A DNA stretch of 36,813 bases, from the IMG/VR virus record IMGVR_UViG_3300016484_000181, positions 1 to 36,813 of that record; one strand, given 5' to 3'. Source of the DNA: a virus (Duplodnaviria > Caudoviricetes). The notes under the pieces are model-generated. The model searched no databases. It had not been told where the DNA came from and was given only the letters and a program-made list of their open reading frames with translations. The position numbers and the translations under genes are program-made. Numbering within the stretch: position 1 is the stretch's first letter; every line of letters starts with the position of its first letter. Positions 6,123 through 34,673 of the stretch are shown here, piece by piece.

Positions 6123-6521
6123 TTATAAAATCTTTATCATTTCAGTTGTGTTTGCTGATCCCTTTTGGAATCCGCACTCTTCGTACATCTTTACTAGAGA
6201 TGGACTCTTTAACGTTGAAAAAGCATAAAGTAAACCTTTTTGTTTACAAATCTCTAAAAGAGAATATATTAAGAACTCTATGGCCTCCTTTCTGTCTTTT
6301 TCTCTGTAATGGAAGTTCGAAACTATGAACTCAATCCAAGCAACCTTTGAGTTTGTCATGTACACAAATCCAGCGCATACATCAACTCCATTGCTTGATA
6401 CCATAAGTCCTCCTGTACCACTCTCTGGCAAGAAGTCTTTCGATATAACTGGCCATCTCCAATCCTTCCACCAGCCACACAACTTATGATAATCGTCTTC
6501 AACTAGGTATCGGACTTCCAT
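6123..6521 (-). CDS. GNAT-fold acetyltransferase-like protein
   Basis: MEVRYL..DDY start, VCAGFVY and AWIEFIVSN strands, C-terminal KMYEECGFQ (Y-x-x-x-G-F motif). Position matches T7 gp13-like genes before ejection proteins. Confidence 0.65.
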   Translation of the reverse strand: MEVRYLVEDDYHKLCGWWKDWRWPVISKDFLPESGTGGLMVSSNGVDVCAGFVYMTNSKVAWIEFIVSNFHYREKDRKEAIEFLIYSLLEICKQKGLLYAFSTLKSPSLVKMYEECGFQKGSANTTEMIKIL

Positions 6522-6525
6522 ATCA

Positions 6526-6533
6526 CAAATTTA
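6526..6533 (-). promoter_or_regulatory. Bacteroidota -7 promoter element TAAATTTG
   Basis: Matches TAnnTTTG, lies 4 nt before the ATG at 6521, and overlaps the upstream stop codon. Confidence 0.6.
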
Positions 6534-7361
6534 CATAAAACTTTTGAATATTGTAGAGCCTATCTCGAATAATTCAACAGGAACACTAGAGTTATATGTT
6601 AGTGTAATATCCATATAATAACCCCTAGCACCATAAGACTCAGCTGTTGAGTTTTTAATAGCTACTAACTCTTGTCCATTAGAAGGAAGAGTACCAGTAA
6701 AAGACAAATAAATATCTGGATTTCCAGTAGCTGTATTATTATCTACAAATCCAACATCACCTATATATGTTAATGTTGTTCCAATGTATCTATATATTTG
6801 ATCTGGAGGAGATACATCCTTTATTTCTAATCTTTCTTGTGGAAACTTATTTATTGTTAAAACATCAGTGTACGGAAATGTTGCTGGCCCACTCTGTAAC
6901 AGGTTACCAATACCTATTATTCTGGTTGAAAGTTGATCATCTAATTGACTAAAATCAGTCAAGAAGTTTCCTATTGGATTAGGATTTCTTCTTATGTGTG
7001 CAAAATAACTTCCTTCCTTAAGCTCAAACCATGAATCGTCAATATTTCCAGATATTAAATCAGTAAAAACAGAAACAGTCCAAGGACTAGTACTCTCTAG
7101 TGAAACCGTCTTAAACAATTTAACTTCTAGTGGAGAATCATTAAATACCGTTCTAACAGAGCAAAATGCAGCATTTGCATAAGGCGTAGATGGATAGTAT
7201 ACAGTTCTTTGAGCTGAAGGTGAGTTGTGAAGGTATATGTTACCATTCTTAAATGTGTAAAAGCTATTACTTGAGTATACCATGTAATCTGGAATAAAAC
7301 TCCAGAATGAAGTCCATCCTTGAACATCGTCAGAGTATGATATAGTAAGTGGTGCTAACAT
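6531..7361 (-). CDS. Tail stabilisation/muzzle protein, C-terminal part encoded as a separate gene
   Basis: TISYSDDVQGWTSFWSFIPDYM..FYTFKNGNIYLHN, VKLFKTVSLES, KEGSYFAHI and YGARGYYM..VELFEIGS resemble the C-terminal portion of crAss-like stabilisation proteins. Confidence 0.65.
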   Translation of the reverse strand: MLAPLTISYSDDVQGWTSFWSFIPDYMVYSSNSFYTFKNGNIYLHNSPSAQRTVYYPSTPYANAAFCSVRTVFNDSPLEVKLFKTVSLESTSPWTVSVFTDLISGNIDDSWFELKEGSYFAHIRRNPNPIGNFLTDFSQLDDQLSTRIIGIGNLLQSGPATFPYTDVLTINKFPQERLEIKDVSPPDQIYRYIGTTLTYIGDVGFVDNNTATGNPDIYLSFTGTLPSNGQELVAIKNSTAESYGARGYYMDITLTYNSSVPVELFEIGSTIFKSFM

Positions 7362-7379: not shown

Positions 7380-8294
7380 TTAAACCAAACAGCTATCTAT
7401 TGACTTTACTAGCTTATAGTAGTTGTAAGAGCACTTGTACTCAGACACTTTTTCGTTACTATTGTATGGGTAAGAGTCCATGTACTTAGCCTTGTGAAAC
7501 ATCTCGTCCTTGTCAGACATTACTCCTGCATTATGAAAGAAGAATACTTGATCCCATCTCTTTATATTACAAGTAGCCCAGCAAAAGTCAAACTCTCTAG
7601 GAACAACAACCTCTATACCTAACTTCCAAGCTGTCCATAGCTCGGCCCACATGCTTGCAGTCCATGCCTGTATACCATGATTACTTCCATCATTTCTAAC
7701 GTGCTGTAGCTGCATCATAACGTCATATAGCTCAAATGAGTATTTCTCAACCATCTCCCAGTACTCGTGAGTTAAATTCTTCATTAGCTTCTGTGCTCCG
7801 CCACTATTATTTTGGTTTGACTTGACAAGTTCTCTAGATATCCCAACAACGTCACACATGGCATCTAACACCTCTTCTCCCTTGCTTGCTATATACTCAT
7901 AGCCTATGTACGATATTGTGTCAGAGAAGTACCACTTGTCATCGTTCAAGAACTTGCCGAAGTCAAGGAACCTAGTAAATGCAAAGTCAGCATCAACAAA
8001 AAAATAAGCGCTGTTATCTGGGTGTTCTTTAAAGTGTTTCTTAAGTATATGTGCCTGTATTGCAGGAAGATACTTGCACTCACCTAGAGTATCCTCATAA
8101 AAGAAAAAGTTAACTCTTGAGTGAACTTTCTGTAACTTTAACCAAGACTCTGGTATGTCTTCTTGATATCCTGCAACAACATGCATCTGTTCTGGATCAT
8201 ATCCAGTCAACATGAGGTTAACTATTTGCACCTCAATTTGCCAAGCATAATAGTCTATAGCTGGTTGAGCTGATAGAAATTTAATTTTATTCAT
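7380..8294 (-). CDS. Putative GT-A peptide O-glycosyltransferase (HPAT/SERGT, GT95/GT96-like)
   Basis: YYAWQ near the N-terminus, YLPAIQAH, DxD in FFVDADF, GGAQ, AWTASMWAE, FHNAG. The ATG at 8294 overlaps the upstream TAA (TAATG) and is preferred over the TTG at 8300. Confidence 0.6.
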   Translation of the reverse strand: MNKIKFLSAQPAIDYYAWQIEVQIVNLMLTGYDPEQMHVVAGYQEDIPESWLKLQKVHSRVNFFFYEDTLGECKYLPAIQAHILKKHFKEHPDNSAYFFVDADFAFTRFLDFGKFLNDDKWYFSDTISYIGYEYIASKGEEVLDAMCDVVGISRELVKSNQNNSGGAQKLMKNLTHEYWEMVEKYSFELYDVMMQLQHVRNDGSNHGIQAWTASMWAELWTAWKLGIEVVVPREFDFCWATCNIKRWDQVFFFHNAGVMSDKDEMFHKAKYMDSYPYNSNEKVSEYKCSYNYYKLVKSIDSCLV

Positions 8295-11137
8295 TAACAA
8301 TTTTTAGTAGTACCAGTCCACTCTAAACCATCCCACTCATAAGCAATGCTTCCAGTTGCTAATTTATAAAAATTTGATGGAGCAAGATCCGTAGCAAATA
8401 TACTGTCATATATGTTGTTTCCTGGAACTCCAATTGGTCCATCAATATAGAACGTTACAACTGGTGAAGAGCAAACCTCAGTAGATGACCCAAAATTCAT
8501 TAGTGATGCATATATTGGCTTAGTTGTAGTTGTGGTAGTTGTAGTTGTGGTAGTTGTCGTTGTAGTTGTAGTTGTAGTTGTAGTTGTAGTTGTACCAGTA
8601 CAGCTTGAGCAGTTATCAAATAAAAACAATATGTTTGCATCTTGAGTTCCTGGAGTTGTTGTAGTAAGTATCTCGTAGCAAATACCATCGTCACATCTAA
8701 CTATTGATCCTGCTGTTAACTCTGATGGATTTTGATGTGCCAACAAGTACGTAGGACCAGGTGATGAACATATTTGAGCATCATAATAAAACGTAGGTAT
8801 TGTAGTAGTAGTTGTTGTAGTTGTAACAACGCTACAAGGATTTATGTGTAATACTTGTCCAGTATTTGCAATCTGTATGGCATAGTTATATAAACTATCT
8901 GTGGCATAATACCAAAAGAACTCACCATTAAATCTATTTGTACATAATGCATCTGAGTATACAAAATCACCAACAAGAGGCATTGAATATAATCCAAAGA
9001 AGTAATAAGTAGATACAGCTGCCCCCATATAACAAGCAACATAGTCACTTGTAAACTGAGTCACATCATCCATATTAAAACTAGCTATTGGAGGAAGTGT
9101 CGTTGTTGTAGTACTAGTCGTAGTAGTAGTTGTACCAGTACACGTTGAACAGTCAGCATAAATAACTACAGGATTCTCAATATAGAAGTACGGAAATCCA
9201 CCAGGAGATGCCGAGTCTATCTCCCAACAATTACCATCTTGAGTTTTAACTACGTCACCACTTGATATTGCAGCACTTGTTATGTCTAATAATATAGCTG
9301 TTGTACTATTGTCAATGCATGATACAGCGTAATAATATGAACCAACAACTGGTATTGTTGTCGTACTTGTTGTACTAGTAGTTGTAGTACTACCAGCACA
9401 TACTGAGTAGTCAACAACATAACCATCGTTATCTATTCTAATAACATAATCAGACTTATCTATAAAATACCAGAAATTACCTCCATTAAAGTATTCTTCA
9501 GCATTCTGATCTCTGTATATTCTGTCTCTAAGTGTAGGAACATTATTGCTTCCGTCTGAGTATAATATAGAAAAAGTTGGAGTTATACTACAACAATCTA
9601 AAGATGTCTCCTTATATTGCTCTATATCTACTGAGAATGGTATTAATCCTCCTTCAGATACAAACACATTTATAGTGTATGGGTCACTAGTTCCAAAACA
9701 ATTTGTGGCTGTAACATTAAACGAGAAATTTTTTATATCTAGTGCCGAACCAGAAAGAACCCCATTAGATCCTAAAGATAAACCTGGAGCAAGAGATATG
9801 TCATTACACTGACCAGATACAATATAAGTTCCATCTCCATTTATAATGATAGGTGAAATAGATGCACACACAGTTACTTCTTGACTTGAACTTACAGTTA
9901 TATATCTATTATTTCCATTGCAGTCTAAATAGCTAAACAATGTAGATTTTGAGCCTCCATTAAGTACATAATTATAACAAGTACCAACCAAAGTAAATGA
10001 TGTTGGATTACCTAAAGATGCAAGAGATATGCTGACGTCTTCATTAACTGTTATATATATATCTCCTTGTGTTATTATAGGAACAGCTGTTTCTGGGCAA
10101 TTGCACGTATCTATTAAATTGACAACTCCATCTTGATCTACAAGAACGTATGACTTGTCTATAGGACTAGGAACCATACACATTACTATGTCTATCATGT
10201 GATATGAATCATTACCATTGTACCTACTTGATCCAGATATGTCATTGTATATTATATCTCCAAACTGAGGCGTTAGATTAAAACCATCATGCCAAAGAGT
10301 TGTTGTAGGACACTGAGAGCATACATTTGAAAGAGTTCCGTCTGTTGTATCTAAATAAAACATTGTAAGGAATGGATCAACCTTATTTATAATCCAAGTA
10401 GATGCAGGTATTGGTGAGGATACTATGATTTCAGCAGTATCAATAGATGCGTCATTCTTCTTAAATCTTAATGCTCCATTTCCATTATTTACAAGTCCAT
10501 CATACGGAAAAACTAAGTTGATATCATCTGGACTAACTCCAGCAGCAATTAAATCATTATAATTTGATAAGCTATTAAGTCCTACGTATCCAGAGTCTGC
10601 AACAATAGATCCGTTCCATTTTACTTGAAATCTTGTCGGAGCGTCGATAGAATTATAATTAATCCCAGCGACACCAATACCAGCTCCAATAGTCCAGTTA
10701 ATAATCCTTTCATCTGTAGTCCCAATGTATGATATGTTTGTTGATCCGTCAATTGTGTCGTTATAATCCCAAAATAAGTATAGGTATGGAAAGTCGTTTG
10801 GATTGCTAAACACAAATGTACCAGTAAACTCTCCAGATGAATATATTACTGGTATCTCAATTGAGTCTGCCTTAATTATATCTTTATCTTCTGGACCATA
10901 CAAAACATCAGACACATAGTAATAAAGCTTATTGTTTAATGTTGGAGATAACTCTTTAAATGTACCAGTAGTATCACCTGCTTTTACGGTAACAGTAGAT
11001 CCGTTATATGGCATATAGTCAACACCTCCAACACCAGTTAGTTGATCAAATATTGCAATATTGTTATTACTAATAACAACATTATCTATATCATAGACGT
11101 TACTACCAGTGTACTCAAAAGATTGTTTTGTCATCAT
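8294..11137 (-). CDS. Virion surface/tail-associated protein with repeated Cys-rich beta domains and poly-Thr linkers (947 aa)
   Basis: Beta-rich with an Ig-like segment (LAPGLSLGSNGVLSG..FSFNVTATN), four Thr tracts and many paired Cys. Lies inside the tail module. Confidence 0.7.
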   Translation of the reverse strand: MMTKQSFEYTGSNVYDIDNVVISNNNIAIFDQLTGVGGVDYMPYNGSTVTVKAGDTTGTFKELSPTLNNKLYYYVSDVLYGPEDKDIIKADSIEIPVIYSSGEFTGTFVFSNPNDFPYLYLFWDYNDTIDGSTNISYIGTTDERIINWTIGAGIGVAGINYNSIDAPTRFQVKWNGSIVADSGYVGLNSLSNYNDLIAAGVSPDDINLVFPYDGLVNNGNGALRFKKNDASIDTAEIIVSSPIPASTWIINKVDPFLTMFYLDTTDGTLSNVCSQCPTTTLWHDGFNLTPQFGDIIYNDISGSSRYNGNDSYHMIDIVMCMVPSPIDKSYVLVDQDGVVNLIDTCNCPETAVPIITQGDIYITVNEDVSISLASLGNPTSFTLVGTCYNYVLNGGSKSTLFSYLDCNGNNRYITVSSSQEVTVCASISPIIINGDGTYIVSGQCNDISLAPGLSLGSNGVLSGSALDIKNFSFNVTATNCFGTSDPYTINVFVSEGGLIPFSVDIEQYKETSLDCCSITPTFSILYSDGSNNVPTLRDRIYRDQNAEEYFNGGNFWYFIDKSDYVIRIDNDGYVVDYSVCAGSTTTTSTTSTTTIPVVGSYYYAVSCIDNSTTAILLDITSAAISSGDVVKTQDGNCWEIDSASPGGFPYFYIENPVVIYADCSTCTGTTTTTTSTTTTTLPPIASFNMDDVTQFTSDYVACYMGAAVSTYYFFGLYSMPLVGDFVYSDALCTNRFNGEFFWYYATDSLYNYAIQIANTGQVLHINPCSVVTTTTTTTTIPTFYYDAQICSSPGPTYLLAHQNPSELTAGSIVRCDDGICYEILTTTTPGTQDANILFLFDNCSSCTGTTTTTTTTTTTTTTTTTTTTTTTTKPIYASLMNFGSSTEVCSSPVVTFYIDGPIGVPGNNIYDSIFATDLAPSNFYKLATGSIAYEWDGLEWTGTTKNC
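8522..8593 (-). repeat. (ACAACT)n-based tandem repeat encoding 24 consecutive Thr
   Basis: Codons counted directly. Shorter Thr/Ser tracts at 8801-8824, 9098-9133 and 9356-9391. Confidence 0.95.
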
Positions 11138-11142
11138 AATTT

Positions 11143-14100
11143 TTATCCGTTTACCATTGGTATAATAACTGAAGGAGAACTTACACCACCTTGTGTTAAT
11201 AAGAAATCTTTAAATAAATTTCCACAATAACTTACTCTAAATATTACACTTCTAGGTGTAAGACTTGGATTAGAGGCATAAGAAGCATATATAAACTGAG
11301 AATATGAACCATTTATTGTCTGACAGTTTACCCAATTTGTTCCAAATCCATTATCTATAATATTTATTGTCCATGATGGTGACAAACTATTTACTGAAAA
11401 CATAAATGCTGGTCCAATAAAAGCGCTTGAACTAACACTTCTAATAGATGGAGATATATTTAAATCACAATATTGTTTTTGTCTATCAGACAAACTAATT
11501 ACATATAAACCATTGTAAGGGTCAAATCCACCAAACTTAAAGTTATTAGGATTGTCTCTCATAGTATCTATCCAAAACGATCCCATTCCTTGAGTTGATA
11601 TAGGTATTACTTGATCACCAATTAGTTTTATTACTGATCCTCTTTTTTCATCTGCAAAATAACAAACATCTCCCCAAGTTGCAAAACTTTCTGGGTTGTC
11701 ACTTATTCCAAATTCACCAGAATAAGCTACTTGATTACCAAGAACTTCTGGTATAGATGCTATCTGACTACCTCCTACTGCATCATAAAGTAAGTTTTTA
11801 CCATATAGCACAGATGTTACCTTGTCTTGATGCAGAGTTAATAAGTCAGTATCTCTAGCTTTTAGTTTTTGAACACTACCATATCTTTTATCTAGGTTCT
11901 TAAAATTAGCCAATGATAAGTTAAACTCATTTAATCTATTAATTGATGTAGTAGCTTGAAAAACACCGCTATATGTCAAAGATGAAAACTTATGCTCTTC
12001 TTCATAGTTTTCTATTACTGATGTAACCCTTGGGCTGTAATTCATTACAGGAGCATTAAACGAATCCTTAATTCTATAAGTTTCTAATCCTGTATTATAT
12101 GTAAATGAGTTATAGTCACCATTTGGATAGTCTGGATAGTTTATTTGTATTTTTGCACCATTTGTTACAGATGTCTGATCCTGCTCATATATTGTATAAG
12201 AAACAGATCCTGGGTATGAAGGTGACACAGACATTGATGGGGTAACGTCAATTGCATATCTATTAGGTGTGCCTATTATCGTATGAGCGGTTGTAGAGGA
12301 AACACCAGTAGTATTAATGTATATAGTATCACCAACACTAAAATAGTGAGGCCATTCCTTTGTTGATTGAGTTAGTCTTGTACTACTGCTTGGACCATTA
12401 GATCTACCAGTAAAGAACCATCTTGATATGTGTTTTCCATTTTTAATTGGAAATGTTCTTGATAACTCGTGAAATATTTCTGTTTCAGTATCTAGTGGTA
12501 CTGTTTCAAAAATTATGGAATTTACTGGAAAAATTTGATTAATTGTAAAACTAACTTCAAATAGATTTTGTTTACAACCATTTTTATTTCCATAACCCAT
12601 CATAAACATTGTAATTCTTTGAGAACTAGGGTTATATGTTACTTGATTTGTAGTGTTACCATTGTTAGGTGTTATTTGAGATACTAGACCGCTTGTTTCT
12701 CTAAACCAAATTGGTTTTGATCCTTGGTTTGTGTTATTTAAATCTTTAGAAATAAATGTTGTCCATGCTCCAGATTCAACAAACCATTCCTCTATATTTT
12801 CATATGATTGAGGTGAAATGAATGTTTGAGGATTAGAATATGCATTATTATTAAACCTATCATTTAATACTCTAATTGTAATTACTGCTTGAGAAGCTAT
12901 AGGTCCAGAAAAATTACCAGATAAAACTGCCATTCCACCATTTAGACCTTCTGTAAATCCATATACACTAGAATTAGTTATTGATGATGAACCAAAATAA
13001 TTAGATCCCATTCCTACACCAACAGCTGTTGGTGCTGGTATACGAGTTCTGCCTCCTATCTTCCATTTATCTCCAACTGTAAAATTGTTACTATTAAATT
13101 GTATAAAAAACGAAGACCAATTTGCGGTAACATTTATAGGTAATCCGTTAGATTGTCCTGATCCGTATCCGTTTCCATAAAAAGAAATACCTTGAGCGTG
13201 AGTTGGTGTTTTTATATTATATACTTTACCAACTACTATAGGTATATCATTAACCTCTATCCAATTTGATACACCGAATAAATCTACGGTATAATTAAAT
13301 TTATTACCAGGTTTTATTTCTATAGTATATCTTAAGTCCTTACTATAAAAATATTTATTACTTATTATATTTCCTGGAATTGGATTATTAACTCCTGGAA
13401 CTGTATTTCCAATAAATGGCGATGTTATGTTAGTAGAAAGTGCCGTTGAATCAGAGGCAATTGAACCATAAAAAACTGGTTTTGATGTATAACCAAAAGA
13501 TGCATTAACATTAGGCCCATTGACTAATGAAGGAACTGAATTTCTTTCATTTCCTGTATTGCAATTTAATTGATTTGTAGCTTGATTTGTAGAAGTAAAA
13601 GATTGATTGGTGCTGATTGGTAGAATAGAAATTTCATTAGGCTCTATTCTTATTTTAAAATATAATCCTGCTGAGGCATTTGTTATGTTATTAAATCCAG
13701 CTTGTTTTACTTCTAATTCTAATATTTTATATTGTTTATTTGAATAAGTAGGGATAGAATTCTTACCTTTTTTTAATATCACATAATCTCCAACTGCAAA
13801 TTTATCTCGATCTGATTCATTAATTAAAAAATATCTAAATAGACCATCACATACATACAATCTTGGAAATATATTATAATAATCTTTCCTGTTTTGTTTT
13901 AATACTAACCTATAGTTTGTAGCCCATGATGGCGGATTATGATTAATTTCAACTCGTAAACTATTTGCCTTATCAGATGCAGATGGTGGTATATAAACAG
14001 CATTGCTCAATATATTACCAGCATTACTTAGAGCAGGCGTAAGAACTGTTGTCATTCTTCCGTACTCGTCAGTATACACTATTCCAACTTCATAATCTCT

Positions 14101-15258
14101 ATCACTTCTAAATGATCTCTTAGGTCTATTTCCTGATATTGATTCTGAATAATAACTAACTTTAAAATTAATATTTATATCAACATCATTTTCATTAGTT
14201 ATATTTCTAAACTGAAGATAGTTTCCATATATCAATCTATTTCCAATAATATCTTGAGCAAGTGCCTTTAATGGAACATTATCAAATAATCTAGTCAATT
14301 GATCATTAGAAAGAGTAGTAAGTATCTTATTATTTCTAAATGTAAACGAGTACGTTGTATTGTCTTGTATATTGAGTTCGTCTTTATTAAAGCTATCAAT
14401 AACCATAACGTTTAAGCTTCTGGTATCTCTAACTAAAAGTTGTATTTCTTTTACAAACTCGTTTCCAGTTTCAAAATGAATATCAATATTATTTTTTTGA
14501 TTAATCATCCCTAAATTATCACCAGTCTCGTAGTCTATAGCAAATGCTCCAGCATCAAATCCAACTGCTGAGAATGGAGACATTGAGCTATACTCATTAT
14601 CAATGTACTTGTATCTATAACTAAAGTACACAAACTTTTCTTTTAGATTTGTAGAGTCTGGATTATTACTTTGAGATAATGAGATATATGGAGCATTAAG
14701 CGGAGGAGTCATGATAACACTAATGTCATCAGCTATTGATGGATCATCAGCTGTGTACCCCTTGCATCTGTTTATGTTTATTCTTCTAGGCGGATTATAG
14801 TTATCTGTCCAAAACAAGTAGTTGTTACCGTCTTCACCTTCAATATAGTTTATACCCGTAACAACATAATTTGCATTAAAGTTTAATGGACTTCCAGGGT
14901 TTGGCTTAGAACACTGTAGAACTCTAGTTACTTGTCCTTGACCACCATTACTAGCTAAACTTAGCTCAAATATAGCGTCAAACTCATTTGCGGTTACCAG
15001 CCAATATATTAATCCCTTTGGTTCATATACAACGGCTCCTATAACAATAGGATTGGTAACATTAGGTGATGTTACTAATTGTGAAATAGCTGATGACTGT
15101 AAGTTACCATAAGCATTTTGAATTGCACCAACATCTCCAGATGCGTAACTATTTACAGTTACGTTCTGTGCAGATATATATGAGCCATTAGGCAATAACC
15201 TCTCATCGAGGTCTTGATTCATTACTCCTTTTTGAAATGTTCTACTAATGTCAGCCAT
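11143..15258 (-). CDS. Tail stabilisation/muzzle protein, main N-terminal part (1371 aa)
   Basis: FQKGVMNQDLDERLLPNGSY, LFWTDNYNPPRRIN, RLFDNVPLKALAQ..GNRLIYGNY, YSGEFGISDNPESFA and GGFDPY motifs typical of crAss-like stabilisation proteins. Follows the two ring proteins. Confidence 0.8.
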   Translation of the reverse strand: MADISRTFQKGVMNQDLDERLLPNGSYISAQNVTVNSYASGDVGAIQNAYGNLQSSAISQLVTSPNVTNPIVIGAVVYEPKGLIYWLVTANEFDAIFELSLASNGGQGQVTRVLQCSKPNPGSPLNFNANYVVTGINYIEGEDGNNYLFWTDNYNPPRRININRCKGYTADDPSIADDISVIMTPPLNAPYISLSQSNNPDSTNLKEKFVYFSYRYKYIDNEYSSMSPFSAVGFDAGAFAIDYETGDNLGMINQKNNIDIHFETGNEFVKEIQLLVRDTRSLNVMVIDSFNKDELNIQDNTTYSFTFRNNKILTTLSNDQLTRLFDNVPLKALAQDIIGNRLIYGNYLQFRNITNENDVDININFKVSYYSESISGNRPKRSFRSDRDYEVGIVYTDEYGRMTTVLTPALSNAGNILSNAVYIPPSASDKANSLRVEINHNPPSWATNYRLVLKQNRKDYYNIFPRLYVCDGLFRYFLINESDRDKFAVGDYVILKKGKNSIPTYSNKQYKILELEVKQAGFNNITNASAGLYFKIRIEPNEISILPISTNQSFTSTNQATNQLNCNTGNERNSVPSLVNGPNVNASFGYTSKPVFYGSIASDSTALSTNITSPFIGNTVPGVNNPIPGNIISNKYFYSKDLRYTIEIKPGNKFNYTVDLFGVSNWIEVNDIPIVVGKVYNIKTPTHAQGISFYGNGYGSGQSNGLPINVTANWSSFFIQFNSNNFTVGDKWKIGGRTRIPAPTAVGVGMGSNYFGSSSITNSSVYGFTEGLNGGMAVLSGNFSGPIASQAVITIRVLNDRFNNNAYSNPQTFISPQSYENIEEWFVESGAWTTFISKDLNNTNQGSKPIWFRETSGLVSQITPNNGNTTNQVTYNPSSQRITMFMMGYGNKNGCKQNLFEVSFTINQIFPVNSIIFETVPLDTETEIFHELSRTFPIKNGKHISRWFFTGRSNGPSSSTRLTQSTKEWPHYFSVGDTIYINTTGVSSTTAHTIIGTPNRYAIDVTPSMSVSPSYPGSVSYTIYEQDQTSVTNGAKIQINYPDYPNGDYNSFTYNTGLETYRIKDSFNAPVMNYSPRVTSVIENYEEEHKFSSLTYSGVFQATTSINRLNEFNLSLANFKNLDKRYGSVQKLKARDTDLLTLHQDKVTSVLYGKNLLYDAVGGSQIASIPEVLGNQVAYSGEFGISDNPESFATWGDVCYFADEKRGSVIKLIGDQVIPISTQGMGSFWIDTMRDNPNNFKFGGFDPYNGLYVISLSDRQKQYCDLNISPSIRSVSSSAFIGPAFMFSVNSLSPSWTINIIDNGFGTNWVNCQTINGSYSQFIYASYASNPSLTPRSVIFRVSYCGNLFKDFLLTQGGVSSPSVIIPMVNG

Positions 15259-18169: not shown

Positions 18170-19615
18170 TTATCCCTTGAAGATAACGAAGTTGTTAGCA
18201 CCAAGTGTACAAAGCGCTCTTTCAGACAAGAAGTTAACTTGCATTGCATCAAGATCGCTAGTTGCAGCACCACCAGCTGAACCAGTCATCCAAGTTTTGT
18301 ATCTACGATCTTCAGCCTCAGAAGCTCTAAAACGCACGTGTAAGAACGGACGTCTAGCGTTTTTACCAAGAACTTGATCGTAAACAGTCATTGTTCCAGC
18401 AGGAACCAATACACCGTTAACTACACCACCAACTAAACCTCCACGAAGAGTTGCATCGTTAAGGTATTTCCAGTCAGTTTTGTAGAACTCGTATCCTCTC
18501 TTGAATCCAGAGAAACCAAGGTTCAATGCCATCTCCTCACTGTTATCAAATAAACCGTAAGAAGTACCACCAGCTCCGTAAGAGTTTTGAGCAGCCAACA
18601 TATCATCGATATCGAAAGAGAACTGACGATTCAAGAATAATACGTTTTCAGCGATAGCACCTTGTCTGTCTAATCTTTGAATGATAGTGTCAAAGTCAGC
18701 CAATGAAGATGGATTACCACCAGACCAAATGTTACCTCTAGTCTCAATAGCATCAAATAAACCTTGAGTACCAGCAGCTGTAGAACCAGCAGTTGTAGAA
18801 CCAGTTGCAGGAACAGTGCTAGGAGAAAGGTAAGCTAATGCATCAGAACCAGCTTGAGCAGGTACACCTTCAACCATTGCCATTTCAAGATAATCCTCAA
18901 AACGTAAACGAGTTTCGTGCTCTGACTTCATGTACCATAAGTACCCAGTAGCTCCATTTTCTGTAGTTACTTCAACCCATCCAACTTGAGCCATGTCAGA
19001 ACCAGATACAACATATGTATCTTTAATGATAATTGGTTTAACATCAAAGAATAAGTCTTCAGCCTCTAAAGATCCTACCATTCCAGTATCTCCCTTTCTA
19101 AACTCAGAACCGTAAACAAATACAGTTACAAGTTCAGTAGTTTGAGTAAATGGAGAACCAGATGCGTTGTAAAATTTAACAGTAAATGTAGTACCAGAAG
19201 GAGATACAGAACTAATAACACCTTTAGCAGAGTTTGCAGCTACTGATTGAGATGAAATAAATACTGTTTGATTTACTCTAAAGTTACATACAGTCAATGG
19301 AGAGGTAATAGGCATAGCAAAAGTTGCTGTGTCTGAACCAGCTGGGTCATTTGGAACGACATTTGTGTACTTTGTATGTAAACGACCTTGCTCTGCCCAT
19401 TTAATCATGTCAGAGTTTGTAGGAAGTTCAGCACCAACCATACGCAAGAAAGATGCGATTGATCTGTTTCCATAACGCTCAAATTCTTGCTCGTAAGTAT
19501 CTGGAAGATACTGATTCAAGAAGTTAAAGTTTGTAATATAATTTGAAGACAATGTTGCCTTCACCGCACTAGGTGTGATTGCTACACCTGGGCTTAATGC
19601 TAATGTACCAGCCAT
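18170..19615 (-). CDS. Major capsid protein (crAss-like, HK97 fold)
   Basis: QYLPDTYEQEFERYGNR, WAEQGRLH, TRLRFEDYLE, LNLGFSGF and PFLHVRFR motifs. Follows the scaffold and is followed by a terminator. Confidence 0.88.
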   Translation of the reverse strand: MAGTLALSPGVAITPSAVKATLSSNYITNFNFLNQYLPDTYEQEFERYGNRSIASFLRMVGAELPTNSDMIKWAEQGRLHTKYTNVVPNDPAGSDTATFAMPITSPLTVCNFRVNQTVFISSQSVAANSAKGVISSVSPSGTTFTVKFYNASGSPFTQTTELVTVFVYGSEFRKGDTGMVGSLEAEDLFFDVKPIIIKDTYVVSGSDMAQVGWVEVTTENGATGYLWYMKSEHETRLRFEDYLEMAMVEGVPAQAGSDALAYLSPSTVPATGSTTAGSTAAGTQGLFDAIETRGNIWSGGNPSSLADFDTIIQRLDRQGAIAENVLFLNRQFSFDIDDMLAAQNSYGAGGTSYGLFDNSEEMALNLGFSGFKRGYEFYKTDWKYLNDATLRGGLVGGVVNGVLVPAGTMTVYDQVLGKNARRPFLHVRFRASEAEDRRYKTWMTGSAGGAATSDLDAMQVNFLSERALCTLGANNFVIFKG

Positions 19616-26082: not shown

Positions 26083-26353
26083 TCTTTATTTTTGCTTTGC
26101 CCTCTGCAAAACCATGCTTACCAAATTCAATTTGTGCAACAGGTTGCTGCGTATCTTTGTTCTCTTCCTCGTCAATCTTACCAAGCATATATATGGCATC
26201 CTCAAATGCAAGTCTCTTTGCTGATGCCGCATTTTTTAACTTATCAGCAGATATGTCATCCTCAGCATGAGTGATTATTGGTTCCTTAAGAACCTTTATC
26301 AACTCATCAACAGCTATCTTTGCAGCCTGTATTAACTCTATTTTTTTAGACAT
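26072..26353 (-). CDS. Helical protein, candidate terminase small subunit
   Basis: Overlaps the terminase large subunit start. Function is inferred from position only. Confidence 0.45.
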   Translation of the reverse strand: MSKKIELIQAAKIAVDELIKVLKEPIITHAEDDISADKLKNAASAKRLAFEDAIYMLGKIDEEENKDTQQPVAQIEFGKHGFAEGKAKIKNGK

Positions 26354-26898
26354 ATATTCTTGTTATACATTCTATAAAGTACTTCATCGTCTATTCTGAA
26401 CTCGTACTCACTATCTGGTGAAAAAGCTACAATATCACCCCTTGATACATCTTTAAGCAAATCATTAAAGTATACTAGTTCACCCCATAATTCTTCCCTT
26501 GATCCAGTGGTTGAGATAACCTTGTCTTGATTTTTTATAGGTCTTACAAAGCAAAATGGATATGGTGACATCCATTCTCCTTCTGGATCTTTGTACAGAT
26601 ATAACTGATCAGACTCTATAATAAAGTAATCATCAAACAAGTGATGCCAGCTACTCTTCTGGTTACCCTTCATGTCATAGTAGAACTTAAATACGTTATG
26701 ATGAACTATCACATGATCGCCACTCTTTATTGGACCATCATAGTTTATTGGAACAGAAACAACCACACCGAGTCTGTTAGATACAGTGTGGTCTTCCTGT
26801 GATGTGCTTATAATAAAATCAACTTCACCATACTTACGTATGTTGTCATAACGCCTACTATTGTAAGGTTTTATGATAAAATGATGTGGAGACTTCAT
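26338..26898 (-). CDS. Tandem GroES-like (double Cpn10-fold) protein
   Basis: Two GroES-like units: FIIKP..GVVVSVP..IKSGDHVIV and CFVRP..GELVYFN..VSRGDIVAF..EFRIDDEVLYRM. Confidence 0.6.
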   Translation of the reverse strand: MKSPHHFIIKPYNSRRYDNIRKYGEVDFIISTSQEDHTVSNRLGVVVSVPINYDGPIKSGDHVIVHHNVFKFYYDMKGNQKSSWHHLFDDYFIIESDQLYLYKDPEGEWMSPYPFCFVRPIKNQDKVISTTGSREELWGELVYFNDLLKDVSRGDIVAFSPDSEYEFRIDDEVLYRMYNKNICLKK

Positions 26899-29683: not shown

Positions 29684-29830
29684 CTATTTTAATTCATAGT
29701 ATATTTTCATTGTATCATCCACTAGAATGATACCCTTATCCGTTTCAACGTGAAGTTGTGTATCACTGATGACCTCGATAGGTCCTATGATCGTGTACTC
29801 TATTTCGTTATGTGTAAACTTAGACTGCAT
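29684..29830 (-). CDS. Small acidic protein after the fibre gene (MQSKFTHNEIEY...IYYELK, 48 aa), possible fibre chaperone
   Basis: Translated by hand. Fills the gap and overlaps the fibre stop by 11 nt. Confidence 0.65.
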   Translation of the reverse strand: MQSKFTHNEIEYTIIGPIEVISDTQLHVETDKGIILVDDTMKIYYELK

Positions 29831-31250
29831 ATTTAGATACATTCACGTTAATAAAATTAGTGATCTCAGTAGTAGCAAAATTTTGTATTGCAAATAATAG
29901 ATAATAAGTATTGCTAGAATTAAATGGTACTAATGTATATGCTCCATTTGTTACATCTGATGAGATTAATGTACTAGGTGAGTAGCAGTAAAGGTTACCA
30001 CTAATTAAAGGGAAGTCTCTCCAAAATGTTTGAATCTGTAATGAGGTCATGTTAGCTGCTGATGCTATCAATGTTGCACCACTTAAACTATTGGATGTGT
30101 TAATGTACATCCTGATGTTAGTAGTACCACTACTTACACTCTTAAATGCCTTACTTCTAATTTGTAATACATTCCCATTCACTAACTTGTTAGCAGTTAT
30201 AATTTGACTAGCACTAATAGTATTAGCTATTGTACCTGTTACCTGTGTACCTATTTGATTCCCTATCAATACATATGGGCTAGAATCAATATTGATATTA
30301 CCACTACCTAGTAAAGATGTTGAGTTGATGGTCTTAATGCTAGTGCCACTAACCAGTTCAGTTTGTATTCCAGCACCTGATATAGATTTATTCTGCCATA
30401 AATCAGTGGCTAAGTCATACTGTAGTATGTCATTATCAGCAAGTCCAGATATCTGAACGTCATGGAGCTCATCTAATTCGTATCCATTCTGTACCCTAAC
30501 ATACATTCTTCCAGCACTTCCATTACTTGCTGTAGTTACAAATCCTAAATAAACCAAGTGATTTGGAGCGTGAGGCTTGATATTCGTAATTGATCCTGCT
30601 GTTGCACCTAAATACACAGGATCACCATCAGCCCATGTTGACGTTGGAAGAATACTCAATCCGTCAAGCTGACCATTAAGTATAATAAATCCCTTTTGGT
30701 TAGCTCCAATTGATGTAGACAATACTAGACCTACCGTTTGAGCTGAAGTAGCGTCAGACGTGTTGTATGCAAGCTTAACCTTTAGTCTGTCACCTTGTCC
30801 TCCAAACGCATATACTGGTTGACCTTTTGTTATTGTTATAGACTCAGCGTTTGTTACGTATGCAAGTAGTGTATTTGGTGACGTACCTATAACTTGAAAA
30901 ACATTTAACGTTGAGTTATATACACAAAGCATTTCTGCTCCGTCCTCAATGTCACCACCTATTAATTGACCGTCATTATTTCTATACATTGTAATGGTAC
31001 CAAGCCCATTAATATTTAATGTAGATCCTGTGGTATTACCATTTGTAAATCTAACAAGATATGCATCACCGTCAGCATAAGAAGTTACTCCAGATATTGA
31101 TACGGTATACGTGTCTGTACCGCTTGCAGTACCATGAGGTATACTACCACTACCACCACCACTAGAAATAACTTTAGGCTTACCGTCAGATCCGTTTACC
31201 TGTAGACCGTTTGGACCAAATATATTTCCACTTGAGTCGGTTACTTGCAT
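29820..31250 (-). CDS. Tail or head fibre protein
   Basis: Mosaic of fibre motifs: NTTGSTLNINGLG, ITKGQPVY, ELDELHDVQIS..DILQYD..WQN, LVSGTSIKTINSTSLLGSGNI. Confidence 0.8.
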   Translation of the reverse strand: MQVTDSSGNIFGPNGLQVNGSDGKPKVISSGGGSGSIPHGTASGTDTYTVSISGVTSYADGDAYLVRFTNGNTTGSTLNINGLGTITMYRNNDGQLIGGDIEDGAEMLCVYNSTLNVFQVIGTSPNTLLAYVTNAESITITKGQPVYAFGGQGDRLKVKLAYNTSDATSAQTVGLVLSTSIGANQKGFIILNGQLDGLSILPTSTWADGDPVYLGATAGSITNIKPHAPNHLVYLGFVTTASNGSAGRMYVRVQNGYELDELHDVQISGLADNDILQYDLATDLWQNKSISGAGIQTELVSGTSIKTINSTSLLGSGNINIDSSPYVLIGNQIGTQVTGTIANTISASQIITANKLVNGNVLQIRSKAFKSVSSGTTNIRMYINTSNSLSGATLIASAANMTSLQIQTFWRDFPLISGNLYCYSPSTLISSDVTNGAYTLVPFNSSNTYYLLFAIQNFATTEITNFINVNVSKYAV

Positions 31251-33949: not shown

Positions 33950-34456
33950 ATGAAAATAATAAAAAAAAGAAAGAAGCGTGTTGATGCTATATACTATGGT
34001 CGTGACACAAAGTATGACTTTCTTAAGAACTGGGGAATGATTAGAAAGTGGGCAATATACCAGTACGGACTTAAATCATCGGCAGATATCGACATGTTGC
34101 TATTCTTGTACTCAGAGAAACTATTTACTAGATCAAAGTTTAATGAGTATGCGTCATTTATGTCTTGGGATAGAAGGAGGTTTGATAGACTTCTAAGCGA
34201 TGGATTCATCTCAATATGGAGAAAAAGAAAGTATGGGGAGTATAACTTATATGAGCTATCTTTCCAGTCTAAAAAGATGATATCTAGTATGTATAGAAAG
34301 CTAATTGGGCTAGAACCCTTCCCAGAGACTCCAAGACGAAATAAGGTAATGAAACCAAACGCCTCTTACTCCGAAAGGATGCTAGCCCAAGCTATTAAGA
34401 GATTTAATTCAGACTTTAAAGAACACAAACAATGTCCTTCTCCTGAACTACAGTAA
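33950..34456 (+). CDS. Putative winged-helix DNA-binding protein
   Basis: Only credible plus-strand gene, filling a gap with no long minus-strand ORF. LKSSADIDMLLFL..FDRLLSDGFISIW..LYELS resembles a MarR-type winged helix. Confidence 0.6.
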   Translation: MKIIKKRKKRVDAIYYGRDTKYDFLKNWGMIRKWAIYQYGLKSSADIDMLLFLYSEKLFTRSKFNEYASFMSWDRRRFDRLLSDGFISIWRKRKYGEYNLYELSFQSKKMISSMYRKLIGLEPFPETPRRNKVMKPNASYSERMLAQAIKRFNSDFKEHKQCPSPELQ

Positions 34457-34673
34457 ACCTGTTGTTGTCAATTAGGACCTCATATGAGTGTACCTTGTCG
34501 TACATCACCTTGTCTCCCTTAGACATTCCAACAACGTTTATTCCTGGCTCAACAATTACACCGTAGTGGTATCTCATATCTTGGTACTCGTCACCACTTA
34601 GGATTAAACCGCTGTTTGATTTTTTCTGCTCTACAACCTTCTCGATTAGTAGAAATTTATTTAGTACTCTCAT
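34416..34673 (-). CDS. groES: Co-chaperonin GroES (Cpn10)
   Basis: FLLIEK..KSNSGLILS mobile loop, GVIVEPG, KGDKVMY, VQEKDIVCVL. Confidence 0.88.
   Translation of the reverse strand: MRVLNKFLLIEKVVEQKKSNSGLILSGDEYQDMRYHYGVIVEPGINVVGMSKGDKVMYDKVHSYEVLIDNNRFTVVQEKDIVCVL

Follow-up and report, generated by a model that had tools for sequence, protein, structure and literature searches.

A predicted phage glycosyltransferase and its candidate poly-threonine acceptors in virion proteins

Introduction

Passages in published reports on the mycobacteriophages Che8, Corndog, and Myrna describe phage-encoded glycosyltransferases that O-glycosylate capsid and tail-tube proteins (PMC12363180, PMC13445384, PMC12691614, PMC12582341). 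As far as those passages go, this virion glycosylation is the closest known case to the pair of genes that we analyze here, which lies at positions 7380 to 11137 on the minus strand of a 36,813-base fragment, about 60% complete, of the virus record IMGVR_UViG_3300016484_000181 (the whole stretch is called the window below). One gene codes for a 947-amino-acid (aa) protein with four threonine/serine tracts and the other for a 304-aa predicted glycosyltransferase, which, we propose, probably places the first O-linked sugars on poly-Thr tags carried by virion proteins. As in virion glycosylation systems, the enzyme is linked to structural genes in phages, the glycan itself being predicted in our case, and the Gram-positive carriers of the enzyme are also tagged at capsid and tail-tube C termini. 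Unlike in the mycobacteriophage system, the hosts here are Bacteroidota and Bacillota, and one enzyme stands in place of a set. Further, the candidate tag is a multisite poly-Thr run, whereas that of the mycobacteriophages is reportedly one terminal Ser. A tally of 75 tblastn records by first word returned, among actinophages, one Arcanobacterium phage only and no mycobacteriophage.

The relevant sections of the plant literature offer another parallel: GT95 and GT96 are related Golgi enzymes and type II membrane proteins (PMC8012813), of which GT95 is predicted to be GT-A-like and GT96 to have a new fold (PMC8476585). Like HPAT (GT95) and SGT1 (GT96), which initiate O-glycosylation on runs of hydroxy-amino acids according to those sections (PMC8012813, PMC8476585), the phage enzyme would act first on such a run; unlike them, it is predicted to be soluble, and its candidate acceptor is Thr (92% of the residues in the linked tracts) rather than hydroxyproline or Ser. 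The closest solved folds are those of GT8/GT24 enzymes (LgtC, glycogenin, Gat1, and UGGT; Z scores of 13 to 15), with which it shares a DxD motif and a C-terminal His, but the identity is 8 to 12%, there is no Pfam match, and most GT8/GT24 enzymes extend glycans rather than initiating them on peptides. We found no published report of a phage pairing poly-Thr with a glycosyltransferase, most subscription journals being outside our reach and the link to ribosomally synthesized and posttranslationally modified peptides (RiPPs) not having been searched.

A predicted GT-A enzyme

The enzyme gene (positions 7380 to 8294 with the ATG at 8294; window coordinates are on the minus strand unless marked otherwise) codes for a protein whose close homologs are also 304 aa long. 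It matches the full-length profile of phrog_4417, a family whose function is not named (E value of 3e-62; profile positions 2 to 292 of 293), and a search with the profile of the enzyme family recovered 955 representatives at 50% identity. The protein has no match in Pfam or NCBIfam, and a sequence search of solved structures returned only chance matches to TALE repeats. In the structure model (95.5 in the predicted local distance difference test, pLDDT), the fold runs from residue 5 over the whole chain as one soluble domain. The best Foldseek matches are all GT-A enzymes of the GT8/GT24 type (WbbM, UGGT, glycogenin, and LgtC; E values of about 2e-6, TM scores of 0.43 to 0.52), and VIA returned LgtC (Z score of 14.9; root mean square deviation of 3.5 over 231 residues), the Skp1 galactosyltransferase (14.3), and glycogenin (14.2). 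Among viral models, the best were an uncharacterized phage protein (TM score of 0.92) and Orf49 of Lactobacillus phage LP65 (0.77). From the model, the protein is predicted to adopt the GT-A fold.

The GT-A core is defined, in the portion of the survey that deals with it, by the DxD motif, the glycine loop, the xED motif, and a C-terminal His (PMC7185993). We assigned these elements to positions in the enzyme by their order rather than by atomic superposition, and the DxD, glycine loop, and C-terminal His do occur in the GT-A order. Conservation was counted over 168 alignment rows from 162 diverse family sequences and, for the clade of the window enzyme, over 105 close members. D101, D103, G166, Q168, M215, H254, and K268 are conserved in 160 to 162 of the 168 rows. 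The D101-A-D103 motif (7986 to 7994), likely to bind the metal and the diphosphate, is found in all 105 clade members, its two aspartates being present in 160 and 161 of the rows. Conservation and motif order make GGAQ at residues 165 to 168 (7791 to 7802) the likely glycine loop, and FHNAG at residues 253 to 257 (7524 to 7538) contains His254, the likely metal-binding C-terminal His, which is kept in 162 rows. The likely equivalent of the xED motif is the segment WTASMWAE (residues 211 to 218; 7641 to 7664), within a helix spanning residues 210 to 224. Here the family has an acid at position 214 in 145 of 168 rows (D in 117 and E in 28), which bears out a caveat attached to the original prediction, that SM replaces an EM motif; the window clade has Ser214 and, one helical turn later, the clade-specific Glu218 in 105 of 105 members. 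Lys169 is equally invariant in the clade, against Tyr/Trp in the family.

All the motifs on which the original prediction of a hydroxyproline arabinosyltransferase-like (HPAT/SERGT-like) enzyme was based (YYAWQ, YLPAIQAH, FFVDADF, GGAQ, AWTASMWAE, and FHNAG) are present in the protein. The motifs of plant GT95/GT96 we take to be Y-x-x-W-Q, DxD, and W-x-x-E-M-Y in the same order, and one phage member of the family reads WVAEMY at the xED-equivalent helix, resembling the last of these. As for the prediction itself, the GT-A fold is supported, being retrieved with both Foldseek and VIA, and the enzyme may work like HPAT, but its membership in GT95/GT96 is not established. The Pfam HPAT family (PF23452) matches neither the window enzyme nor any of the sets of 105, 78, 20, and 37 relatives scanned, no GT95/GT96 entry is among the fold-search matches listed by Foldseek and VIA, and a Golgi type II membrane anchor is at odds with a fold that begins at residue 5 and fills the whole chain. 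Searches of the carrier genomes with PF23452 returned no match, the positive controls being silent too. In Atlas features, the enzyme lies at 0.97 (211 of 256 features shared) to a mostly viral cluster, 10% of which has HPAT, an embedding hint only, and a DUF7164 cluster is equally near. Kinship with DUF7164 (PF23741) was not confirmed: the enzyme has no Pfam match to it, genome searches of carriers came back empty with their controls also silent, and an alignment to one DUF7164 protein, a weak single-sequence test, gave a probability of 0.6%.

Many of 78 scanned representatives (picked from 150, with long ones favored) carry a second domain of the GT2, GT6, GT7C, GT25, GT29, or GT32 type, mostly at the C terminus. 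Because this places the family domain ahead of chain-extending glycosyltransferase domains, the fusions fit an enzyme that lays the first sugar. Another architecture is that of the 792-aa member P0251, which has a Gln/Pro-rich N terminus and, after the enzyme domain, a Thr run of its own; from its sequence, it is possibly an enzyme-substrate fusion.

Threonine tracts in a probable tail-tip protein

The gene for the 947-aa protein (8294 to 11137) shares 1 nucleotide (nt) with that of the enzyme, the stop and start codons forming a TAATG junction (8292 to 8296), as had been noted earlier. The two genes overlap by 1 nt in 45 of 79 related loci and by another length in 24, a short gap separates them in 5, and for the remaining 5 no nearby ATG was found; we infer from this arrangement that their translation is coupled.

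The four tracts of 12, 12, 8, and 24 residues, also reported in the original prediction, lie at residues 583 to 594 (Thr/Ser; 9356 to 9391), 669 to 680 (Thr/Ser; 9098 to 9133), 772 to 779 (Thr; 8801 to 8824), and 849 to 872 (Thr; 8522 to 8593), and all are predicted to be disordered. A Thr/Ser run of at least 12 residues arose in none of 10,000 shuffles of the protein, and one of at least 8 arose in 57. Most aligned members are just 37 to 50% identical to the window copy, and the median tract lengths in the 62 relatives with four tracts are again 12, 12, 8, and 24. The tracts in those relatives are 92% Thr (3676 of 4007 residues) with all four Thr codons in use, which argues for selection on the amino acid; the mixed codons and the retention of tract lengths rule out slippage of a DNA microsatellite. 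In one contig from another study, the fourth tract (8522 to 8593) is shorter by 27 nt, in frame, indicating that its length varies between strains.

The open reading frame, the structure model, and one fusion to a muzzle (tail-tip) protein describe the product as a series of beads on a string. Its folded domains include a jelly roll at about residues 127 to 255 (Z score of 9.1) and an Ig/cadherin-like domain at about residues 346 to 496 (11.3); beyond residue 497 follow small Cys-bearing beta domains linked by the four tracts, and the pLDDT falls below 50 exactly at those tracts and at two short loops. Foldseek with the entire model gave only low-TM multi-Ig matches. The gene sits between two parts of the muzzle, which form one gene in Elemovirus: upstream, a 1371-aa virion structural protein (11143 to 15258; phrog_14478) corresponding to the N-terminal part and, downstream, a 276-aa protein (6531 to 7361) with the crassvirus muzzle C-terminal domain (PF25729; E value of 8.7e-10). 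In the enzyme-negative locus L165, a muzzle protein of 1787 aa has a homolog of residues 42 to 580 as its C-terminal part, and in L165 and L166, both without the enzyme, this homologous region stops at a Cys just before the first tract. In L163 and L170, residues of about 15 to 126 match the C-terminal region of the muzzle. Given the flanking muzzle genes and the L165 fusion, the 947-aa protein is likely a part of the tail-tip (muzzle) protein that has been split off and lengthened, and in the comparison with L163, L165, and L170, the Thr-linked extension is seen only where the enzyme is present.

We find no support for the cassette itself as the cause of the split in the muzzle gene, enzyme-negative relatives also having a two-gene muzzle; among those checked, the muzzle is in one piece only in Elemovirus. 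In three enzyme-negative sisters (L100, 14965 to 16266; L110, 8650 to 9945; L117, 14864 to 16543), a muzzle C-terminal gene with one or more variable N-terminal domains replaces the cassette, so the slot at the tail tip appears to be a hot spot for the swapping of appendages.

Joint presence and absence of enzyme and tracts

The proposal accompanying the original prediction, that homologs of the enzyme should be checked for co-occurrence with poly-Thr structural proteins, led to a tight link with negative controls. A protein with a Thr/Ser run lies directly upstream of the enzyme in 79 of 79 IMG/VR loci, most of them from one clade (in 5 rows the run was read from the last column). The enzyme and such a protein also go together in other phage architectures (L072, L073/L074, and L078/L079). 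Ten cultured phages were selected for diversity from 75 GenBank records, and in every one capsid, tail-tube, or accessory proteins bear Thr tails or tracts, several phages being tagged on two or three separate genes. The ten are Chryseobacterium phage MA9V-3; Enterococcus phages phiFL1A, 9183, and 4995_1; Lactococcus phages 1706 and bIL285; Lactobacillus phages iLp84 and Iacchus; Clostridium phage phiCTP1, in which the runs are interrupted; and Staphylococcus phage PMBT8.

Comparisons among sister phages used loci gathered with a structural-gene query, i.e., chosen without regard to the enzyme. In the window clade, the tail-gene query gave 34 of 80 loci with at least 4.5 kb downstream, of which 28 reach the far muzzle gene (6 truncated loci being excluded); 7 of the 28 have both enzyme and tracts, 21 have neither, and none is mixed. 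The cassette is dispensable in this clade and is, therefore, an accessory trait. For tail tubes of the phiFL type, 24 of 27 loci were long enough, with 12 showing both and 12 neither, and for capsids of the iLp84 type, 58 of 74 loci divided into 31 with both, 25 with neither, and 2 with a tract only. Among iLp84-type capsids that are 94 to 99% identical, the Thr tail is present or missing in step with the enzyme. In prophage loci, strict tracts occur in 10 of 11, and the same rule found no match in 492 kb of 24 enzyme-negative loci. The enzyme family was absent from the entire record of 31 of 31 negatives, many of them fragments, with matches in 5 of 5 positive controls, and from all 400 other genomes sampled from a host phylum.

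A Thr/Ser loop in the capsid protein (residues 264 to 279 of the open reading frame at 18170 to 19615) had been put forward as another substrate. The loop is there, but its presence is unlinked to the enzyme, as a similar one occurs in the enzyme-negative L115 and L117 and is missing in the enzyme-positive L156 and L161, and we reject this candidate.

Several loci show variations in how the tags are encoded. In Enterococcus phage 9183 and its kin (L088, 9790 to 9910; L288 to L291, near 7190 to 7330), a poly-Thr tail lies out of frame just past the capsid stop codon, preceded by a CCCAAAA or GCAAAG site. The sequences suggest that a programmed -1 frameshift yields a tagged minor form of the capsid protein, for which phage A2 offers a precedent. 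In L176 (7874 to 7960) and L177 (7831 to 7930), a short in-frame Thr tail precedes a second one that is encoded in a different frame. In other phage types, the enzyme gene is followed by what appear by eye to be further glycosyltransferase-like and methyltransferase-like genes (L072, 10915 to 11559; L074, 4610 to 6083; L078, 8015 to 11443; L079, 10945 to 14373), which suggests that longer glycans may be made there.

Bacterial relatives beside peptide precursors

Bacterial members of the family, reached via a plasmid match, are 34% identical and fused to a second glycosyltransferase. The enzyme domain is found in all 38 bacterial loci (L294 to L331), and in 14 of these a double-glycine precursor was detected by a pattern that overlooks a few precursors seen by other inspection. 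Over 16 distinct precursor cores, Thr accounts for 75 of the 288 residues at positions 1 to 18 and for 47 of the 625 beyond, as raw counts uncorrected for kinship and without control clusters. Examples of these RiPP-type clusters, whose precursors have Thr-rich core starts and Cys-rich ends, are found in L302 (4659 to 4913 and 4992 to 6737) and L317 (4632 to 4952). Scans of five loci revealed ABC exporters with C39 peptidases, HlyD, VKOR-thioredoxin fusions, LanC-like proteins, more glycosyltransferases, and a radical SAM enzyme among the neighbors. The bacterial members thus resemble glycocins and other glycosylated RiPPs in adjoining double-glycine precursors, C39 exporters, and disulfide-forming enzymes. 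The known glycocin transferases are of the GT2 type and modify one or two Ser or Cys residues; here, the domain is unrelated, and the precursor cores are rich in Thr at their start. We regard the clusters as candidates for the production of glycosylated peptides, and the Thr-rich precursors again point, in an independent setting, to a Thr-bearing peptide as the acceptor.

A model for the phage system and its alternatives

On the strength of the predicted fold, the conservation of GT-A motifs, the overlapping genes, and the way in which enzyme and tracts are present or absent together across phages, we propose that the phage-encoded enzyme probably initiates the O-glycosylation of poly-Thr tags in virion proteins. 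Both genes would be expressed late and in a coupled manner, and the soluble, metal-dependent enzyme would act in the cytoplasm, before or during assembly, moving the first sugar from a host nucleotide-sugar to the Thr hydroxyls of the four tracts in the 947-aa protein. The poly-Thr run may serve as a portable recognition tag. Dense glycosylation might make the linkers stiffer and longer and protect them from proteases, and the stiffened linkers might hold the small domains out from the tail tip. As the nearest folds are GT8/GT24, a retaining mechanism is weakly indicated, and so is a short glycan, because no second glycosyltransferase was recognized in the 36.8-kb fragment, in which 26 larger proteins were scanned and from which 40% of the genome is missing. 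Escape from antibodies is an unlikely purpose for a freshwater phage.

Several observations weigh against this proposal. The likeness to solved enzymes is at the fold level, with 8 to 13% identity in the top rows, and throughout the window clade Ser214 replaces the otherwise conserved acid and Lys169 replaces Tyr/Trp. The virion location of the 947-aa protein derives from gene context and one fusion. The loci are not independent: a tree of the tail gene (53 rows, five of them labeled from partial loci) needs about 4 gains or losses in the window clade (bootstraps of 3 to 4, minimum of 2), so the 28 loci amount to a few events. L179 has the enzyme but just a short, interrupted Thr tail, and in the near-complete Lacticaseibacillus proviruses L258 and L262, which lack the enzyme, the tail tube still has a Thr tail. 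Of the bacterial loci, 24 of 38 show no precursor by pattern, and only 4 of 37 satisfy the strict poly-Thr rule. The tail in L258 and L262, seven Thr long in both (at 9386), is a natural orphan tag.

Among other explanations, one in which the enzyme acts on the Thr tracts but attaches, for example, a sugar-phosphate (as in Stealth-type enzymes) or another nucleotide-activated group instead of a plain sugar is improbable. Weak matches to Stealth_CR2 occur in 9 of 105 members (best E value of 0.0019, below the family cutoff), a GlcNAc-1-phosphotransferase and CpsY are retrieved at Z scores of 10.0 to 10.6, and the acid at position 214 is variable; however, GT8/GT24/GT6 enzymes score higher (12.8 to 14.9), and the fusion partners of the family are chain-extending glycosyltransferases. 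The replacements at positions 214 and 169 in all 105 close members could also mean that the enzyme of this clade is a weak or dead binder of the tracts, either an assembly chaperone or a virion component, with the D/E-type relatives being active. We consider this still less probable, given that the DxD, His254, and other pocket residues are intact, that the clade-invariant Glu218 could substitute for the lost acid from one helical turn away, and that retaining GT-A enzymes are often variable at the xED position, according to the portion of the GT-A survey cited above (PMC7185993).

Similarly doubtful is the explanation that the enzyme alters the host surface or a host protein, effecting receptor masking or superinfection exclusion, with the tracts being plain flexible linkers and the linkage one of inheritance. 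Phage glycosyltransferases that alter host surfaces do exist, neighboring genes are co-inherited for physical reasons, and the two proviruses with an orphan tail fit such a separation. Yet, the tails are found on unrelated proteins and on several separate genes per phage (bIL285, iLp84, phiFL1A, and 1706), some tagged genes are downstream of the enzyme and more than 1 kb from it, the model takes all 304 residues into one soluble domain, and the family was not found in the 400 other host-phylum genomes.

Host and genome setting

On the minus strand of the window are genes for the terminase, portal, capsid, and virion proteins as well as for a GroEL and for lysis. Maribacter phage Panino has a capsid protein 55% identical to that of the window, and the figure for the Flavobacterium Elemovirus is 47%. 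As all 85 capsid-matching records are from phages of Flavobacterium, Cellulophaga, or Maribacter or from one uncultured phage, the source is probably a podophage of Flavobacteria-like hosts. The stretch is wholly or partly present in 20 of 24 listed runs from 13 studies, for the most part metagenomes of freshwater, estuary, or aquatic origin. An assembly artifact is ruled out by three DNA runs, each from a separate study, whose contigs cover it piecewise in 30, 30, and 29 of its 30 bins. A single RNA run covered 7 of 30 bins, mostly repeats, which is too little to read expression, and a promoter scan of the window gave no signal, staying below the shuffle level.

Other genes in the window include a phage GroEL (34657 to 36222) with a small neighbor that looks GroES-like by eye (34416 to 34673) and a second GroES-family gene near the terminase (26338 to 26898). 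A conserved 132-aa gene after the muzzle (6123 to 6521; phrog_17252), with a relative annotated as an acetyltransferase subunit, could possibly code for a second virion-modifying enzyme; it occurs both with and without the enzyme/tract cassette. A seven-Thr run at 31143 on the plus strand is not a real tract, being the reverse-strand reading of a Gly run (GGGGSG) in a 476-aa fiber-like gene (29820 to 31250).

Implications

More tentatively, one might envisage a single portable, undescribed system of cytoplasmic mucin-like O-glycosylation, comprising an initiating glycosyltransferase and a poly-Thr tag that any protein could be given. Podophages, siphophages, and myophages infecting Bacteroidota and Bacillota would apply it to their particles, in some cases to just a fraction of the capsid subunits via a frameshift, and Bacteroidota would make glycosylated ribosomal peptides with the same enzyme, the family being a viral and bacterial sister of GT95/GT96. 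The main proposal lends itself to direct tests, since lactic acid bacteria kept in laboratories harbor both cultured carriers and natural sister phages that lack the tag. If true, it would provide a soluble one-enzyme tool for the dense O-glycosylation of a genetically encoded tag, a simple sequence tag would predict which subunits are modified, and a new glycosyltransferase family, with 955 clusters at 50% identity, would be defined. It would also indicate a class of Thr-glycosylated bacterial peptides, and virion glycosylation would be no curiosity of mycobacteriophages but a trait spanning phages of aquatic, dairy, gut, and skin settings.

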